Shown: positions 1 to 25,848 of the stretch, piece by piece
How the letters are laid out: the number at the start of each line of letters is the position of its first letter
How positions within the stretch are numbered: the stretch's first letter is position 1
Origin: a virus
Strand: one strand, 5' to 3'
Virus record (IMG/VR): IMGVR_UViG_3300010167_000030
Location: 1-49,442 of that record
Length of the DNA stretch: 49,442 nucleotides
Translations under genes and position numbers: made by a program
Notes under the pieces: generated by a model
What the model saw: the letters and a program-made list of their open reading frames with translations, nothing else
Told to the model about the DNA's origin: nothing
Databases searched by the model: none

Positions 1-48
1 GGTTTCCTAAACCGTGCGTCGGATGTTCGAATCATCTCGGGGGTACCA
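1..48 (+). tRNA. Partial tRNA gene (3' part, Arg-CCU type) = probable att core
   Basis: GGT|TTCCTAA|ACCGT gives anticodon loop U-U-CCU-A-A. Variable region GCGTC, T-arm GGATG-TTCGAAT-CATCT, acceptor 3' strand CGGGGGT, then A and CCA. The 5' half lies outside the window or is absent. Confidence 0.65.
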
Positions 49-54
49 TCAAAA

Positions 55-269: not shown

Positions 270-1445
270 ATGACACAAAACACGACAAGGAAAAAGAGAA
301 ATTATGGGGAAGGTTCTATATATTTTGCCGAAGCTAATAATAAATGGGTAGCGAAATACAAGCCGGAAGGATGGTCGAAACCCAAAATATTTTACGCTAC
401 CACAGAAACAGAAGTAAGGAGGAAACTAAAACAATTTAAAAAAGAATCATCAAAGCAAACACTCATTGAGATTCAGAAAATGCCGGTAAAAGAATATATG
501 GATGATTGGCTTACTAAGGTAAAAACACTCGAATTAAAACCAAAAAGTTATGACCGTCTTGAGGATACCCTTAAAAACCAAATCTATCCGACATTGGGAG
601 ACATCCAGATTCATGCTTTAACCCCAGATGATATTCAGGGATTAATTAAGCATTTGCTGGATGAGGGATATTCGTATTCCACAATAAAAAAGACATATGA
701 GGCCTTCGATGGTTGCTTCAAATTGGGCGTCGAGAAAGGGGACTTGAGTGGTAACCCTGCTACTGGCGTTAAGTTACCGACAAAGATTAAAATCTCGAAG
801 AAAGCACGAAGTAAAAAGATTCGATTTTTTTCAGACGAGGAAGTTAAAGCCATTTATAATGAGTGCCTCATAGAATACAAGCATGGAAAGCGTGGATATC
901 GCCTTAGCCAGGCTTTAATAATACTATTGTATACGGGAATCCGGATAGGCGAATTACTTGGATTAAAGTGGGAACACGTCGATTTTGACAATAAAACCAT
1001 TGAGATCGTCGAAAGCGTAGTGCTAGTGCGTGCGAGAAAAGATGAAAAGACGAAGTATATTTTGCATGAGCAGGACGATACAAAAACCGAGGCAGGCGAC
1101 GGACGTGTCATACCGTTGAATAAAAAGGCCATGGCAGCGCTCCAGCAATTACATGATATTAACGGCAAATGGGATTATGTGGCGGCCAATACTAACGGGA
1201 CCGTAGTACGTCCAAGGAATTTTGATAGGATGATACGTAACATATTGAAAAAATGTGAAATAGAGCCATGTGGAGCTCATGTTTTCCGTCATACTTTTGC
1301 CAGTATGCTATTTAAGAAAGGCATCGATGTTAAATATGTCTCAGAACTACTGGGCCATGCTTCCATCGAGATTACATACGATACTTATATTCATCTTATC
1401 GAAGCGCAAAAGAAACAGATAATTGCGATACTGGATGAACTTTAA
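270..1445 (+). CDS. int: Tyrosine recombinase (phage integrase)
   Basis: 391 aa. Catalytic-domain signatures: TGIRIGELLGLKW (Arg), HVFRHTFAS (H-x-x-R), LLGHASIEITYDTYIH (His and nucleophile Tyr). Adjacent to the tRNA-derived att repeat. Confidence 0.92.
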   Translation: MTQNTTRKKRNYGEGSIYFAEANNKWVAKYKPEGWSKPKIFYATTETEVRRKLKQFKKESSKQTLIEIQKMPVKEYMDDWLTKVKTLELKPKSYDRLEDTLKNQIYPTLGDIQIHALTPDDIQGLIKHLLDEGYSYSTIKKTYEAFDGCFKLGVEKGDLSGNPATGVKLPTKIKISKKARSKKIRFFSDEEVKAIYNECLIEYKHGKRGYRLSQALIILLYTGIRIGELLGLKWEHVDFDNKTIEIVESVVLVRARKDEKTKYILHEQDDTKTEAGDGRVIPLNKKAMAALQQLHDINGKWDYVAANTNGTVVRPRNFDRMIRNILKKCEIEPCGAHVFRHTFASMLFKKGIDVKYVSELLGHASIEITYDTYIHLIEAQKKQIIAILDEL

Positions 1446-1565: not shown

Positions 1566-1595
1566 TGCGTGAAAATTACATATTCTTTAATGAAG
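1566..1595 (+). promoter_or_regulatory. Phage promoter-like motif copy P0a (CGTG variant)
   Basis: CGTG-AAAATT-ACA-TATTC-TTTAAT-GAAG, in the same register as the other copies. Confidence 0.5.
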
Positions 1596-1625
1596 AAGAT
1601 ACGATTTCGGTCTTCTTTTTATTTT

Positions 1626-3569: not shown

Positions 3570-3573
3570 TATT

Positions 3574-3603
3574 TGCGCGAAATTTACACGTTCTATAACG
3601 AAG
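3574..3603 (+). promoter_or_regulatory. Phage promoter-like motif copy P1
   Basis: CGCG(3576)-AAATTT-ACA-CGTTC-TATAAC-GAAG. Ends at the first base of the tRNA-like gene. Confidence 0.55.
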
Positions 3604-3674
3604 AGATAGTTAGCTCAACGGGAGAGCAACCGACTTGTAAAGGGTTGATACGGGTTCGATTCCTGTACTATTTC
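3604..3674 (+). tRNA. tRNA-like gene, Thr(UGU)-type anticodon loop, defective anticodon stem
   Basis: Acceptor AGATAGT/ACTATTT. D-arm GCTC-AACGGGA-GAGC. Anticodon loop CTTGTAA. T-arm ACGGG-TTCGATT-CCTGT. The anticodon stem ACCGA/AGGGT has only 3 pairs (G-G and A-A next to the loop). No encoded CCA. Confidence 0.6.
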
Positions 3675-3700
3675 TTTTATATTTTGAAAGGAGAGAGAAA

Positions 3701-4650: not shown

Positions 4651-5367
4651 ATGTCGCTACGAAGATTAGTTATTAAAAATAGTCCATTTATATTTACCAG
4701 TTTGGCAACCATCGGAGTAGTCGTAACGGCGATATTTGCATCAAAAGATACGATTAAAAATTTCGAAGAAAATGAGAATCGCCGATTTCAAACATTAAAA
4801 TGTTATATTCCAACAATCACCATTGGCCTTATAACAATTTCTTGTATTATTAGCGCCCACGCGCTCAATAAAAAACAGCAAACTGCTCTTATTAGTGCTT
4901 ATATATTTTTAAATAAGGCGTACCAAGAGTATAAAAAGAAATCAAATGAGATATTTGGAGAAAACGCTAGCGACCAAATTCGAAATGAAGTAGTAAAAGA
5001 AAGGTATTTAAAATTAGATGAAAAAGAGGGAAATAATATTTGTAAGACGAACGAGAAAGAACTATTTTATGAAGAATATTACGGGAAATTTTTTGAACGT
5101 ACAAAAGAGGAGGTATTAAACGCCGAATGGCATTGTAATCGAGATTTTATATTAAAAGGATACGCTTCTTTAAACGATTTCTATGAGTATCTCGATCTTG
5201 AACCAACGGAGTTTGGCAACGTGGTAGGTTGGGGCATAGATGTCGGTCATGAGATTTATGGATATTCTTGGATAGACTTTAATCATGAATTAGTTACAAC
5301 TGCCGATAACGAATTAGAATACAATTTTATAACAATGACGTATCCGCCAACTACGAATTATATTTAG
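4651..5367 (+). CDS. Two-TM membrane protein (paralog set A, copy 1)
   Basis: Shares NSPFIF plus TM1 plus K-D/A-T, TM2, N..AL.SAY...EY and C-terminal LNDFYEYLDLEPTEFGNVVGWG with 6104-6931 and 9208-10161. Confidence 0.8.
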   Translation: MSLRRLVIKNSPFIFTSLATIGVVVTAIFASKDTIKNFEENENRRFQTLKCYIPTITIGLITISCIISAHALNKKQQTALISAYIFLNKAYQEYKKKSNEIFGENASDQIRNEVVKERYLKLDEKEGNNICKTNEKELFYEEYYGKFFERTKEEVLNAEWHCNRDFILKGYASLNDFYEYLDLEPTEFGNVVGWGIDVGHEIYGYSWIDFNHELVTTADNELEYNFITMTYPPTTNYI

Positions 5368-5716: not shown

Positions 5717-5718
5717 CT

Positions 5719-5748
5719 TACGCGAAAAAAACATACTCTATAATGAAC
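5719..5748 (+). promoter_or_regulatory. Phage promoter-like motif copy P3
   Basis: CGCG(5721)-AAAAAA-ACA-TACTC-TATAAT-GAAC. Directly precedes the 108-nt structured RNA. Confidence 0.6.
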
Positions 5749-5856
5749 AACAGTAGAAGCTTAATGCTTAGGAAGAATTCACCGATGAATAGAGAATTAC
5801 TCTATCGACCATTCGGTGATGGGGTTCGAGTCCCCACGTTAGATGCTTATACTGTT
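5749..5856 (+). ncRNA. Structured tRNA-like RNA (canonical T-arm, non-cloverleaf body)
   Basis: Perfect T-arm TGGGG-TTCGAGT-CCCCA (5820-5836). A 10-bp terminal stem pairs CAGTAGAAGC (5751-5760) with GCTTATACTG (5845-5854). A 41-nt extended arm (5779-5819) has TCACCGA/TCGGTGA and TAGAG-AATTA-CTCTA. Bracketed by promoter copy P3 and a T-run. I could not fold it as a standard tRNA. Confidence 0.5.
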
Positions 5857-5861
5857 TATTT

Positions 5862-5891
5862 TTCGCGCTATTTACAATGTCTGTAATGAAG
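5862..5891 (+). promoter_or_regulatory. Phage promoter-like motif copy P4
   Basis: CGCG(5864)-CTATTT-ACA-ATGTC-TGTAAT-GAAG. Confidence 0.55.
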
Positions 5892-5904
5892 GGAGTGATA
5901 TTTT

Positions 5905-6045
5905 ATGAATAATGAGAAAGCGATTGTATTTATTGGGTTAGCTGTTAGTTTTATATCAACATTAATAATTGGTTGGACTAACGGTCGATTAACGAAAATG
6001 GCAGTCACAAAATTAGTAGAAGAAGCACTTGCAAAAAGAAATTAA
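5905..6045 (+). CDS. Small (46-aa) single-TM peptide
   Basis: Not in the ORF track (<60 aa). MNNEKAIVFIGLAVSFISTLIIGWTNGRL.... Has the shared GGGAGTGATATTTTATG leader and is followed by a terminator. Confidence 0.5.
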   Translation: MNNEKAIVFIGLAVSFISTLIIGWTNGRLTKMAVTKLVEEALAKRN

Positions 6046-6103: not shown

Positions 6104-6931
6104 ATGAATACGTTAATTCTGGATAGATTTATGAGAAATATTCAGAGAGTCACCAATAAATACAGTCCTGAAATCCTATCTGGAATCGGGATCGCAGGTA
6201 TGATAACGACAACTATTTTAGCCGTTAAGGCAACTCCTAAAGCTCTAAGATTATTAGAAGAGGCTGAAAAAAGATATTTAGATTCTTCGACGTCCAAAGC
6301 ATCTAAAGGCGAATTGGTAGATAGCAAAGGAAAGGAGATCCCGATATTTAAGCCGTTAGAAAAGGTTAAAATAGTTTATACATGTTATATTCCATCCGTC
6401 GTTATTGGTTTTCTGTCTATATTTTGCCTTGTTGGTGCGAGTTCCGTAAACCTACGGAGAAACGCAGCGTTAGCAACCGCATATACGCTCTCTGAATCGG
6501 CTCTACGAGAGTATCAGGAGAAAGTTATTGAGACGATTGGCAGCAAAAAGGAGCAGGCAATCAAAGATGATATTGCTAAAGATAGAATCGATAAAAATCC
6601 CGTAACAAGCAGGGAAATAATCATTACAGAGAAAGGGAATACATTATGCTATGACGTCATTTCCGGAAGATATTTCAAATCTGATATGGATAAAATCAAA
6701 AAAGCTGAAAATCAACTTAATCTACAGTTGCGATACGATATGTTTATATCCTTGAACGAGTTTTATGACGAAATAGGTTTACATCCAACAAGCCTAGGTG
6801 ATCAACTTGGATGGACAATTGATGATGGATATATTGAATTGAAATTCAGTTCAGCGTTGACGGATAGCGGAAGTCCGTGCCTGGTTATTGACTATAGAGT
6901 TGCTCCGAGGTACGACTATAAAAACGGATAA
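6104..6931 (+). CDS. Two-TM membrane protein (paralog set A, copy 2)
   Basis: ATG at 6104 follows GAAAGGAGAAACA. The ORF-track start 6029 would read through the terminator at 6057-6078. KYSPEILSGIGIAGMITTTILAVKAT...LNEFYDEIGLHPTSLGDQLGWT. Confidence 0.8.
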   Translation: MNTLILDRFMRNIQRVTNKYSPEILSGIGIAGMITTTILAVKATPKALRLLEEAEKRYLDSSTSKASKGELVDSKGKEIPIFKPLEKVKIVYTCYIPSVVIGFLSIFCLVGASSVNLRRNAALATAYTLSESALREYQEKVIETIGSKKEQAIKDDIAKDRIDKNPVTSREIIITEKGNTLCYDVISGRYFKSDMDKIKKAENQLNLQLRYDMFISLNEFYDEIGLHPTSLGDQLGWTIDDGYIELKFSSALTDSGSPCLVIDYRVAPRYDYKNG

Positions 6932-9207: not shown

Positions 9208-10161
9208 ATGGATAAATTAAACATTATAAACGGCATGAACAAAACTTTTGCGAGAGTAAATTTTCAGGTAATGAAACATAGTCCTGAAATTTTTCTTATT
9301 GCCGGATTATGTGGAGTGGTCGCCAGTACGGTCATGGCGTGCAAGGCAACTACAAAAATTAATACCATTCTTAGCAACCATAAAAAAGATATTGAGACAA
9401 TTCACACTTATGCTGAAGACGAATCTTATAAAGAAGAATATTCAGAGGAAGACAGCAAAAAGGATTTACTAATTGTCTACACGCAAACCGCTTTTAAATT
9501 CTTAAAACTCTACGGTCCGGCAGTCGCCGTTGGAATTTTGTCAATCGGATGTATATTAGCATCCAATAATATTATGCGTGCCAGAAACATAGCTCTTGCA
9601 AGCGCATATGCCACGATAGATAAAGGTTTCAAGGAATATCGGAATCGAGTTATTGAGCGTTTTGGGAAGGACGTCGATCACGAACTAAAATACAACATAA
9701 AAGCAAAGAAATTCGAAGAAACTATCGTCGATGAAAAAGGAAAAGAAAAGAAAGTCGAGAAAGCCGTTGATATTGCAAATCTTGATTATTGTAGCGAGTA
9801 CGCCCGTTTCTTTGATGCAGCATCGAGACATTGGGAGGATAATTCCGAGTACAATTTAATGTACGCTCGCCTTCAGCAGCAATATGCAAATAATTTACTT
9901 CGGTCTAGGGGATATTTATTTTTGAATGAGGTATATAACATGTTTGATATTCCGATTTCGAAGGCCGGGCAAATTGTCGGGTGGACCTATGATTTAAAAA
10001 ACCCTAAAGGCGATAATTATGTTGACTTCGGAATTTATAAAGCAAGTATTGAAAAATTGGATAATACTGATTTTGTCAACGGTTACGAACCGGCAGTATT
10101 ACTGGACTTTAATGTCGATGGTGATATTTGGAGCACAATAGAGCATTCATTAAAAAAGTAA
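9208..10161 (+). CDS. Two-TM membrane protein (paralog set A, copy 3)
   Basis: KHSPEIFLIAGLCGVVASTVMACKAT...NIALASAY...EYRNRVIERFG...LNEVYNMFDIPISKAGQIVGWTY. Confidence 0.8.
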   Translation: MDKLNIINGMNKTFARVNFQVMKHSPEIFLIAGLCGVVASTVMACKATTKINTILSNHKKDIETIHTYAEDESYKEEYSEEDSKKDLLIVYTQTAFKFLKLYGPAVAVGILSIGCILASNNIMRARNIALASAYATIDKGFKEYRNRVIERFGKDVDHELKYNIKAKKFEETIVDEKGKEKKVEKAVDIANLDYCSEYARFFDAASRHWEDNSEYNLMYARLQQQYANNLLRSRGYLFLNEVYNMFDIPISKAGQIVGWTYDLKNPKGDNYVDFGIYKASIEKLDNTDFVNGYEPAVLLDFNVDGDIWSTIEHSLKK

Positions 10162-23202: not shown

Positions 23203-25848
23203 ATGAACACAATCGCAAGAGAAATCCTGACGCATTATGGAATGCCTAGACGTTCTGGACGATATCCTTATGGTTCTGGGGATAATCCCTATCAACGAAG
23301 TGGCGATTTTTTAAGCCGAATAGAAGAGTTAAAAAAAGAGGGGAAAACCGATAAAGATATTTATGAATTAATGGGGCTTAAATCATCTGAATATAGAATT
23401 CAAAAAGCATTGGCGAACGACGAAAGAAGGTCACTTCTGGTTTCTCAAGCAAAAGCATTAAAAGATAAAGGATATAGTTTAAAAGAAATTACAAGAAGAA
23501 TGGGATATTCGAGCGATTCATCAGTAAGATCCCTTCTTGATGAAAGAGCAGAAGGTAGAATGAATCAAGCAAGGAACACTGCCGACATTCTTAAAAAAGA
23601 GATTGATAAAAAAGGAATGATCGATGTTGGCATAGGCGTAGAAAAAGAACTTAACATTTCTTCGGAAATGAAAAAACAAGCATTATATTTACTTGAGATG
23701 GAAGGGTATCCTGTTTACGGCGGACGTCGTTCGCAAATCACTAACCCAGGAAAGAAAACTACTTTACTAATTGCATGTCCTCCCGGTACTGAGCATAAGG
23801 AAATTTTTAATGCTGAAAACGTTCATTCCCTTAAGGATTATATTTCTTATGATGGCGGCTATACATATAAAAAACCGTTCGTCTACCCAAAGAGTATGGA
23901 TTCGAATCGTATTAAAATTAATTATGCGGAAGAAGGAGGGGATAAGGAAGATGGGCTTATTTATATTCGTAGAAACGTAGAAGATTTAAGTTTAGGGAAA
24001 GCTCACTATGCGCAAGTAAGAATTCTTGTAGATAATGATAAGTATTTAAAAGGGATGGCCGTTTATTCGGATAATATGCCAGATGGCATTGATGTTATAT
24101 TTAATACTAATAAAAAAATAGGAACGGATAAATCAAAAGTTTTTAAATCGATTAGTAATGATCCAAATAATCCATTCGGATCTCTTATAAAAGAAAAAGG
24201 AGGTCAAAGTTATTATCTGGATAAAAATGGAGTGGACCAGTTATCGTTAATAAATAAAAGAGCCGAAGAAGGAGACTGGAAAGATTGGTCTAATAAATTA
24301 GCTTCTCAATTTTTATCAAAACAAAATAAAGCTTTAATAGATAAACAATTGAATTTGACAATCGCCGATAAAATGGAAGAATTTGATGAGATTCGTTCGT
24401 ATACAAACCCAACAATTAAGAAAATACTGTTAAACTCTTTTGCTGACGATTGCGATGCTGCCGCGGTTCATTTAAAAGCTACCGCGTTGCCGAGACAGCA
24501 ATATCATGTCATTTTGCCAATTACCACAATGAAAGATAACGAAGTATATGCTCCGAATTATGAAAATGGAGAAAAATTAGCACTCGTAAGATTTCCACAC
24601 GGAGGAACTTTTGAAATACCAATTCTTACCGTTAATAACAAACAGCAGGATGCCAAAAAAATACTTGAAAATAGCATAGATGCTATAGGCATTAATAGTC
24701 AAGTAGCTTCGAGGCTATCGGGGGCTGACTTTGACGGCGATGCAGTAATGACTATACCGATTACTAATAAAATAAAAATCAGTCACGAGCCTCCATTGAA
24801 AGAACTTGAAGGATTTGACGTTAAATTAGAGTATCCATATCGAGAAGGCATGAAAAAAATGACGAACACCCAAAACGAAATGGGCAAAATCACGAATCTA
24901 ATTACTGATATGACCTTAAAAGGAGCAACTAAAGAAGAATTAGCAAAAGCCGTTAAACATAGTATGGTTGTAATAGATGCTGAGAATCATAATCTTAACT
25001 ATAAACAGAGTGAAATCGACAATAATATTTCTGCTTTAAAAACGCGTTATCAAGAAGGCGGAGCTTCAACGTTACTGTCAAGGGCTAAATCACGAACGAC
25101 AATAATTAAGAGACGAGGAAGCCCTAAAATCAATCCGCAAACTGGAGAATTAGAATGGAAAGAGACGGAAAATCCGACATATGTAGACGAAAAAGGAAAA
25201 ATTAAAACAAAAACTCAAAGAAGTACAAAAATGGCCGAAACAAAAGATGCTAGAACATTGTCTTCGGGGACTCCACAAGAAGAAGCATACGCCATATATG
25301 CTAATAAAATGAAAGCCATGGCCAACGAAGCCCGTAAAGAAATGATTACTACTAAAAAGATACAATACTCCCCCTCTGCGAAAGCCGTATACCAGCAAGA
25401 AGTTAATTCGTTATTAGCTCAACTTAATATAGCATTAAAGAATGCCCCTCGTGAACGACAAGCTCAAGGCCTTGCCGGCGTTGCCGTGGCCGATAGGATT
25501 AAAGGAATTAAAGACATTAAAAAGAAAGAACTTAAGAAACTTAATCAACAAGCCATTACCGCTACTAGAATAACAGTTGGCGCCCAAAGACATCCCATTA
25601 AAATTTCAGATCGAGAATGGGAAGCGATTCAAGCTGGAGCAATTAGTGAGAATATGCTTATTAAAATTATTAAAAATGCTAATATTGATGAACTTAAAGT
25701 TCGAGCTACTCCACGAGCTACAACAAACTTGAGCGCTGCTAAAATTAATAAAATTTCTTCTATGAATTCTTCTGGTTACACAATTAAAGAAATCGCAAAA
25801 GCTATTAATGTATCAACTTCGACCGTATCCAAGTATTTAAAAAATTGA
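23203..25848 (+). CDS. Candidate single-subunit double-psi-beta-barrel RNA polymerase (YonO-like)
   Basis: LVRFPHGGTFEIPILTV...IGINSQVASRLSGADFDGDAVMTIP. The GADFDGD sits at DNA 24721-24741 and matches the NADFDGD metal loop of beta-prime and the DxDGD of YonO/RdRP-type enzymes. HTH-like segments near both termini. Confidence 0.6.
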   Translation: MNTIAREILTHYGMPRRSGRYPYGSGDNPYQRSGDFLSRIEELKKEGKTDKDIYELMGLKSSEYRIQKALANDERRSLLVSQAKALKDKGYSLKEITRRMGYSSDSSVRSLLDERAEGRMNQARNTADILKKEIDKKGMIDVGIGVEKELNISSEMKKQALYLLEMEGYPVYGGRRSQITNPGKKTTLLIACPPGTEHKEIFNAENVHSLKDYISYDGGYTYKKPFVYPKSMDSNRIKINYAEEGGDKEDGLIYIRRNVEDLSLGKAHYAQVRILVDNDKYLKGMAVYSDNMPDGIDVIFNTNKKIGTDKSKVFKSISNDPNNPFGSLIKEKGGQSYYLDKNGVDQLSLINKRAEEGDWKDWSNKLASQFLSKQNKALIDKQLNLTIADKMEEFDEIRSYTNPTIKKILLNSFADDCDAAAVHLKATALPRQQYHVILPITTMKDNEVYAPNYENGEKLALVRFPHGGTFEIPILTVNNKQQDAKKILENSIDAIGINSQVASRLSGADFDGDAVMTIPITNKIKISHEPPLKELEGFDVKLEYPYREGMKKMTNTQNEMGKITNLITDMTLKGATKEELAKAVKHSMVVIDAENHNLNYKQSEIDNNISALKTRYQEGGASTLLSRAKSRTTIIKRRGSPKINPQTGELEWKETENPTYVDEKGKIKTKTQRSTKMAETKDARTLSSGTPQEEAYAIYANKMKAMANEARKEMITTKKIQYSPSAKAVYQQEVNSLLAQLNIALKNAPRERQAQGLAGVAVADRIKGIKDIKKKELKKLNQQAITATRITVGAQRHPIKISDREWEAIQAGAISENMLIKIIKNANIDELKVRATPRATTNLSAAKINKISSMNSSGYTIKEIAKAINVSTSTVSKYLKN

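Follow-up and report, generated by a model that had tools for sequence, protein, structure and literature searches.

In phage T4, the tRNA genes are accompanied in their cluster by two small stable RNAs, C and D (also called species 1 and 2), which have no known function. The upper half of a tRNA is the part that is recognized by RNase P, RNase Z, the CCA-adding enzyme, the enzymes that modify the T-loop, and several of the toxins that are directed against tRNA. The toxSAS and MenT toxins inspect or modify the acceptor ends of tRNAs (PMC11245113, PMC10435456), and the tRNAs of phages evade retrons and other defenses (PMC11555353). Of the tRNA-like RNAs that do not decode, YrlA has its parts in a permuted order, with a T-arm, a closed acceptor-like hairpin, and a D-arm, so that the ends of the RNA lie at the position of the anticodon stem, where they form the stem that binds Ro. 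YrlA also has the motif GNCGAA(N)G in a stem, and the gene for Ro60 is nearby (PMC4201824). In the non-decoding mascRNA, pairing between the leader and the trailer aids maturation (PMC8457004).

Here we analyze a 108-nt element at positions 5749-5856 of a complete IMG/VR virus record (49,442 bp, with terminal repeats), which is the genome of an AT-rich temperate phage. We will call the entire record the window. A first-pass annotation, made from the sequence alone, had proposed that the element is a non-coding tRNA mimic, and had left open whether it is Y-RNA-like, a nuclease decoy, or an unusual long-arm tRNA. The sequence features that it described at 5749-5856 are present, but its unpaired link, its statement that there is no ORF, and termination at the T-run were not confirmed. 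As to the interpretation, we retain the tRNA mimic, and we set aside both the Y RNA and the decoding tRNA. As judged from the predicted fold, the element is a real and strongly folded RNA gene. We put the probability that it is a tRNA-derived, non-decoding mimic of the top half of a tRNA at about 0.55.

Genomic setting

The first 50 nucleotides of the window match the 3' part of tRNA-Arg(CCU) and form the attP core. We considered whether the element might itself be an attP site or a tRNA fragment, but the attP core is at window 1-50, by the integrase gene. Also, the T-arm and 3' strand of the element were not found in bacterial tRNAs; there was one unrelated match in 185,579 species genomes. 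The early region of the phage contains three paralogous genes for membrane proteins with DUF6353 (PF19880, phrog_2152), at 4651-5367, 6104-6931, and 9208-10161. DUF6353 is a very large family, with over 8,000 matches, and is also found in phages of Arthrobacter, Gordonia, and Streptomyces. For the 86-amino-acid protein that is encoded upstream of the element, we found no relatives.

A promoter-like motif of about 30 nt (CGCGAAA..ACA..T.TAAT GAA) is repeated six to seven times in the window. Copies of the motif stand before early genes, and another copy is upstream of the gene for the phage's single-chain RNA polymerase (Table 1). In related phages, the same motif precedes tRNAs and ORFs. The motif is probably the promoter of the phage's own two-barrel RNA polymerase.

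As the first-pass annotation reported, the element is flanked by two copies of this motif, with a T-run before the second copy. It had also described a unit that runs from promoter to T-run, but a scan for terminators makes no call there. Such T-runs also precede the promoter copies that we examined in the window and in its relatives.

A second cassette in the window has the same motif followed, at the same offset, by tRNA-Thr(UGU). The promoter copy of the element is in register with this one (TATAAT GAAC AACAGUA versus TATAAC GAAG AGAUAGU). The anticodon stem of the tRNA (3603-3675) is mismatched at two positions next to the loop, and the gene encodes no CCA. The purine-rich leader of this tRNA can pair with its pyrimidine trailer (within 3599-3690), which lengthens the acceptor helix to about 11 bp. 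Similar pairing of leader and trailer is seen in the tRNAs of relatives (GGAG/CUCU in locus L010).

Elsewhere, at 1565-1660, two copies of the motif are just 60 nt apart, with a T-run before the second copy. Behind the first copy there is only a hairpin of about 30 nt (GAAGAAGA..TCTTCTT; 1592-1625). This arrangement might represent a minimal unit, or it might be what is left of a cassette.

Table 1. Features of the element and its surroundings (positions in the window; P, predicted pair probability).
Feature	Position	Strand	Remarks
Integrase gene	270-1445		attP core adjoins
Paralogous cassette: motif, then tRNA-Thr(UGU)	3573-3675	+	Called by ARAGORN; Rfam 48 bits; repeat copies in register
Promoter-motif copy (CGCGAAA..ACA..TATAAT GAA)	5718-5752	+	TATAAT -10-like box at 5739-5744
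Outer stem, 5' strand AACAGUA	5749-5755	+	Pairs with 5850-5856, P 0.55-1.0; matches acceptor 5' strand of the family by position and sequence
Middle stem AAGC (5757-5760) and inner stem UUAAUG (5761-5766), 5' strands	5757-5766	+	P 0.57-1.0 (middle) and 0.52-0.93 (inner)
12-nt single strand CUUAGGAAGAAU	5767-5778	+	Contains GG; D-loop position; unpaired in the MFE and centroid structures
41-nt hairpin	5779-5819	+	Anticodon-arm position; P 0.79-1.0
T-arm	5820-5836	+	5-bp stem with G53-C61; loop UUCGAGU, of the canonical UUCRANY type
Inner stem CGUUAG (5837-5842) and middle stem GCUU (5845-5848), 3' strands	5837-5848	+	AU bulge at 5843-5844
Outer stem, 3' strand UACUGUU	5850-5856	+	Matches acceptor 3' strand of the family (ACUGUUU); CCA not encoded
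T-run (TTTATTTTT) merging into next promoter-motif copy	5857-5895	+	Motif copy at 5861-5895; not called as intrinsic terminator
46-codon ORF	5905-6045		Driven by motif copy 5861-5895
phrog_4291 gene, single-chain "RdRP-like" (two-barrel) RNA polymerase	23203-25848		

Predicted structure of the element

Three parts of the structure are as first described: the canonical T stem-loop (TGGGG TTCGAGT CCCCA), a terminal stem between 5749-5760 and 5845-5856 (7 bp, a G.A mismatch, and 4 bp), and a 41-nt hairpin that directly adjoins the T-arm. The 8-nt link between the T-arm and the terminal stem (CGTTAGAT) had been described as single-stranded, but its first six bases are predicted to pair with UUAAUG, which gives an inner stem of 6 bp that includes two G.U pairs. 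In the predicted fold, the AU bulge is the sole part of the link (CGUUAGAU) that is left unpaired. Because the link is mostly paired, the T-arm is predicted to stack on an interrupted terminal helix of 17 bp. The T-arm abuts the inner stem and forms a three-way junction with the 12-nt single strand and the 41-nt hairpin. The single strand is plausibly the analog of a D-loop.

The 41-nt hairpin starts from a basal stem of 7 bp (UCACCGA/UCGGUGA). Beyond a 5-nt bulge (ACCAU) come 3 bp, and beyond a further bulge of 1 nt there are 5 bp that carry an apical loop of 5 nt (AAUUA); there is no 7-nt anticodon loop. The 5-nt bulge (5803-5807) contains ACCA, the sequence of the 3' end of tRNAs, which may be a coincidence.

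The minimum free energy of the element is -33.8 kcal/mol (z = -4.13), and none of 200 shuffled sequences was as stable. Most of the pair probabilities in the helices are above 0.9, and the fold persists if flanking sequence is added. Across the genome, 19 of 2,741 windows of 108 nt are as stable, which places the element in the best 0.7%; among windows with matched GC content, it is 4 of 1,178 (0.3%). The prediction agrees with the absence of a cloverleaf that had been noted at first pass: cloverleaf-like alternatives lose 3.3 and 8.4 kcal/mol in stability, and their pair probabilities are around zero.

The real tRNAs of the family have z scores of -2.0 to -2.9, and the degenerate tRNA-like RNAs that we describe below have z scores of -1.0 to -2.4. 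That the element is more structured than either group counts against passive decay. A strict T-arm pattern occurs four times in the window (in two copies of attP, in tRNA-Thr, and in the element), versus 0.2 times per shuffled window. The reverse strand is equal in folding energy, but no promoter precedes it and it cannot form the inner stem; the T-loop motif and the two G.U pairs of the inner stem are on the + strand only.

Remodeled tRNAs in related phages

To gather related loci, we used the neighboring DUF6353 gene, which gave 49 viral loci (44-66% identity) and one partial match (78%). The nearest DUF6353 protein anywhere is P0002, on a Logan contig, with 71% identity. We found no homolog of the element in the 49 loci with either BLAST or a covariance model of the single sequence (R1), and R1 found none in 14 large related records. 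Scans for DNA patterns found no homologs in IMG/VR, in JGI metagenomes, or in the genome contigs of 185,579 species genomes; the matches were ordinary tRNAs, 3' fragments of tRNAs, or chance. Since no copy was found outside this phage, the function of the element can only be inferred.

We also built a covariance model from the tRNAs of the family (R2). Real tRNAs score 75-97 bits with R2 and degenerate forms score 30-49 bits. In the element, R2 matches the T-arm alone (9.1 bits) and not the entire molecule. The tRNA cassette is sporadic, with R2 matches in 6 of 15 larger related records.

In these relatives, the same promoter is followed by normal tRNA-Ile(AAU or UAU) and tRNA-Phe, and also by altered forms. 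L038:1510-1584 and L039:739-813 contain, behind the phage promoter, a tRNA that folds well and whose anticodon loop has 8 nt (CUAAAACC); ARAGORN reads a four-base anticodon (AAAA) in it. This tRNA is a candidate for +1 frameshifting or quadruplet decoding. The tRNA-like RNAs at L013:1195-1268 and L045:1417-1486, which ARAGORN misses, have 6-nt loops in the anticodon position (R2 scores of 30.6 and 48.8 bits, respectively), and the one from L013 also has a non-canonical T-loop (CUCAAAC). L026:822-882 and L029:327-387 encode a 61-nt "mini-tRNA" that lacks the anticodon arm and whose T-arm is altered, although the acceptor stem and the D-arm are there; it is behind the phage promoter and upstream of a DUF6353 gene.

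Another form, at L005:701-830 (also L006:1-120), is a promoter-to-terminator unit of its own. It encodes an RNA (711-795) in which a perfect T-arm (CTTGG TTCGACT CCAAG) adjoins an acceptor-like stem of 5 bp, and the RNA has no arm that could decode. This unit is immediately upstream of a unit with the promoter and tRNA-Ile(AAU). The RNA is not thermodynamically unusual (z of -1.0 to 0.2), and in IMG/VR its pattern is found only in the L005 and L006 contigs.

Given that the promoter in these relatives drives both normal and remodeled forms, the slot behind it seems to tolerate or favor tRNA scaffolds that do not decode.

In a metagenome-assembled genome of Candidatus Acidoferrum (L052:5940-6020), we noticed a tRNA-like sequence with good D- and T-arms that is not called by ARAGORN. 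It shares a 21-mer with the element (GGTTCGAGTCCCCACGTTAGA), probably by chance.

Similarity to the promoter-tRNA cassette

The end strands of the element (AACAGU/ACUGUU) are those of the acceptor stems from L010 and L013, whose 5' strands read AAACAG(U/G), and the U-rich trailer without CCA is the same. The position also corresponds to that of a tRNA in the cassette: the acceptor 5' strand begins 4-5 nt past the -10 box and is followed by a matching 3' strand and the U-rich trailer. Internally, AGCUUAA..UAGG..AAG..UCAC and, further along, GUGA line up with the D-arm and the anticodon stem from L013. In the pairwise alignment, 5757-5766 corresponds to the 5' part of its D-arm, and UCAC/GUGA in the hairpin corresponds to strands of its anticodon stem. 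ACCGA of the hairpin aligns with a strand of the anticodon stem of the window's tRNA-Thr.

In global alignments, as compared to shuffled sequences, the element has z scores of 4.4 with the tRNA from L010, 3.2 with the tRNA-like RNA from L013, and 2.0 with tRNA-Thr. (A multiple alignment with the tRNAs of the family, using MAFFT, misplaced the 5' end of the element and was left unused.) Relative to a tRNA, the element has two insertions: an extension of the hairpin instead of the anticodon loop, and a segment of about 13 nt (within 5837-5848) that separates the T-stem from the acceptor 3' strand and is complementary to the 5' strand of the old D-arm.

These comparisons suggest that the element descends from the family's cassette of promoter and tRNA; the matches are short and do not demonstrate homology. 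As R2 recognizes only the T-arm, the case for descent is built from short common strands, the position in the cassette, and modest alignment scores.

A putative tRNA mimic

We propose that the element has kept the upper half of a tRNA and lost the ability to decode. The parts that would have been kept are the T-arm, an acceptor-type helix formed from both ends, and the strand with GG at the site of the D-loop. The extension of the hairpin would have replaced the anticodon loop, yielding the 41-nt arm, with loss of decoding. The insert of about 13 nt would pair with the former 5' strand of the D-arm, so that the helix on which the T-arm stacks would grow from 7 bp to 17 bp. Transcription would occur early, starting at the motif that the phage's two-barrel polymerase probably uses, and the RNA would fold into an L-like mimic of tRNA.

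Host factors that read the elbow of tRNA or the acceptor-T minihelix might bind such an RNA. Candidates include RNase P or RNase Z, the CCA-adding enzyme, the enzymes that modify the T-loop, and the defense toxins that are directed at tRNA. The element would then act as a mimic or decoy rather than as an adaptor for translation.

The confidence stated above pertains to the tRNA mimic, which agrees with this part of the first-pass annotation: a T-arm on an acceptor-like helix, the strand with GG at the D-loop site, the position in the cassette, and the lack of a usable ORF all point to it. That the element itself is a decoy we suggest tentatively. Expression and processing of the RNA are likewise presumed, from its promoter motif and its resemblance to tRNA.

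More speculatively, the cassette in this group of phages might be a freely remodeled scaffold. Across the group, the anticodon arm takes the form of a 6-, 7-, or 8-nt loop, is absent, or is a long hairpin combined with an extended acceptor. The non-decoding forms might be early decoys against defenses that target the acceptor or elbow of tRNA, or they might be templates or primers for the polymerase. (tRNA-like ends serve the replicases of RNA viruses, which is an analogy for the latter.) We consider this broader idea improbable as it stands. Phage tRNAs are known to counter bacterial defenses that are directed at tRNA. However, most of the tRNA look-alikes in phages that do not decode lack an annotation, as they escape both tRNA finders and Rfam.

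We also considered an antisense role. No complementary targets of more than 10 nt were found in the phage, which is the level expected by chance.

Alternative explanations

The main alternative to a functional mimic is that the element is a neutral relic: a duplicated promoter-tRNA cassette that was wrecked by two insertions and that now serves no function of its own, even if transcription continues. No homolog of the element turned up in any of the collections that we searched, which makes it a singleton. The relatives seem to form a series of decay, in which some RNAs have 6-nt loops, the T-loop can be aberrant, and the anticodon arm can be lost. The sporadic occurrence of the tRNA cassette and the promoter with just a 30-nt hairpin behind it (window 1592-1625) would also fit. 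On the other hand, the fold is more stable than those of the family's functional tRNAs, and there is no damage to the T-loop, to the G53-C61 pair, or to the promoter motif. Also, decay normally breaks helices, while the element has 35 predicted pairs, including two new perfect stems. The counterargument is that self-complementary insertions are paired from birth: a palindromic or template-switch insertion could build such helices at once, without selection. On balance, we think that a relic is possible but doubtful.

The element together with the remodeled scaffolds of the relatives makes up a compact set for asking whether the upper half of a tRNA has a job by itself (as a decoy, a processing signal, or a ligand of the polymerase) or whether these are cases of simple decay.

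Another explanation is that the element acts in cis, either as a spacer or insulator between promoters or as a 5' processing module for the mRNA of the 46-codon ORF and DUF6353. Both the relatives' tRNAs and the window's tRNA-Thr are directly upstream of a Shine-Dalgarno sequence and an ORF, so each would be a leader that has to be removed from the 5' end of the mRNA. The leaders and trailers of these tRNAs pair beyond the acceptor stem, and the T-run after the element is not called as a terminator. However, the ORF downstream of the element has its own copy of the promoter, so it needs nothing from the element. We view a role in cis as quite unlikely.

Known families of RNA gave little. In the window, ARAGORN (run for both tRNA and tmRNA) calls tRNA-Thr(UGU) only, and it is also the only match in Rfam at gathering scores. 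With Rfam at E ≤ 10, neither tRNA, tmRNA, nor YrlA matches the element. The single match over the element at that threshold is to mascRNA (RF01684; 17.8 bits, E = 0.38), and the fold that it implies (P ~ 0) competes with a predicted fold that is far more stable. We rejected mascRNA-menRNA because a score of this size falls far short of the gathering score (42.5). We rejected tmRNA as well: there is no frame that would encode a tag, and the tmRNA search with ARAGORN and Rfam were both negative.

A Y RNA of the YrlA type from bacteria or phages, which would bind Ro60/Rsr, had been suggested at first pass, and the element does have a long terminal stem that is joined to a tRNA-like module. Yet YrlA (RF02553) is not matched, and the topology is not permuted. 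Along the element, the first strand of the terminal helix is followed by the single strand, then by the long hairpin and the T-arm, and last by the other strand of the terminal helix; the D-arm and the closed acceptor hairpin of YrlA are absent (PMC4201824). Between 4200 and 7400, the motif GNCGAA(N)G occurs once, at 6285-6291 on the minus strand, which is outside the element, and no protein in the complete phage record matches TROVE at E ≤ 1.

A further similarity is that 25 identical nucleotides (the T-arm and CGUUAGAU) are common to the element and a YrlA-like RNA in the tRNA arrays of jumbo phages, where these bases form the closed acceptor hairpin. Because the constrained T-arm accounts for 17 of these bases, this identity is probably chance. 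Overall, we consider YrlA very unlikely. A T-arm and a terminal stem are not enough to support a label of this kind.

The YrlA-like RNA of the jumbo phages is itself unannotated. It lies at L056:1474-1580 (and is the same in L053-L055, L057, and L058); these phages have sizes of about 94-186 kb, and in their tRNA arrays the RNA is flanked by tRNA-Phe and tRNA-Ser. With RF02553 it scores 25.8 bits (E = 0.0024), which is under the gathering score, and has the order T-arm, UUCG-capped acceptor hairpin, D-arm.

The other suggestion from the first pass, an unusual long-arm tRNA, would in the sense of decoding require an exotic structure. The acceptor strands and the T-arm are of the family's type, but the apical loop of 5 nt is not a 7-nt loop bearing U33; if its closing pair is opened, the loop becomes GAAUUAC, with A at position 33. 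Searches with ARAGORN, Rfam, and R2 were all negative for a whole tRNA. Similarly, we rejected assignment to the tRNA family (RF00005), as the element lacks a D-stem, a 7-nt anticodon loop, and a T-arm that is directly joined to the acceptor 3' strand. A functional decoding tRNA is highly improbable.

Finally, there is an ORF, contrary to the first-pass annotation: a 47-codon frame (5743-5886) spans the element. Its ATG lies within the -10 hexamer (TATAATG), it has no Shine-Dalgarno sequence, it crosses the T-run and the next promoter, and its product has no match in PHROG or Pfam and no homolog among 5.8 billion predicted proteins. A small protein gene is scarcely credible for this frame or for 33 codons from an AUG at 5785, which has an SD-like AGGAAG nine bases upstream in a single-stranded segment but is buried in a 7-bp stem. 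There is no credible usable ORF in the element.

Comparison with known RNAs

The closest counterparts of the element are the tRNAs of this group of phages, such as tRNA-Thr(UGU) in the window and tRNA-Ile in L005, L008, and L010. The element has the same promoter motif at the same offset, and it is like them in its acceptor strands, its canonical T-arm, the lack of an encoded CCA, and the U-rich trailer. It differs in length (108 nt versus 73-75 nt), in the lack of a D-stem and of a 7-nt anticodon loop, in an arm that is extended by about 27-33 nt, and in the insertion of about 13 nt after the T-stem.

The degenerate tRNA-like RNAs (L013, L045, L026/L029, and L005/L006) occupy the same slot, and they too retain the acceptor stem and the T-arm with a lost or altered anticodon arm. 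The one from L013 even has AGCUUAA..UAGG..UCAC/GUGA in common with the element. Unlike the element, these RNAs are shorter and weakly structured, and they have neither the extended terminal helix nor the long hairpin.

More distantly, YrlA also combines a tRNA-like module, including a T-arm, with a long end-to-end stem, and it is found in phages as well. But the circular permutation, the closed acceptor, the D-arm, the GNCGAA motif, and the neighboring gene for Ro60 are all missing from the element. mascRNA, from MALAT1 (RF01684; PMC8457004), is also a small tRNA-like RNA that does not decode and whose leader and trailer pair. mascRNA is eukaryotic, though, and the score of the element is far under the threshold for that family.

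In the tRNA-like domain of tmRNA, the acceptor and the T-arm are likewise stacked, the D-loop has no stem, and the anticodon arm is replaced by a long helix. In contrast to tmRNA, the element has no mRNA-like part, pseudoknots, tag frame, or encoded CCA.
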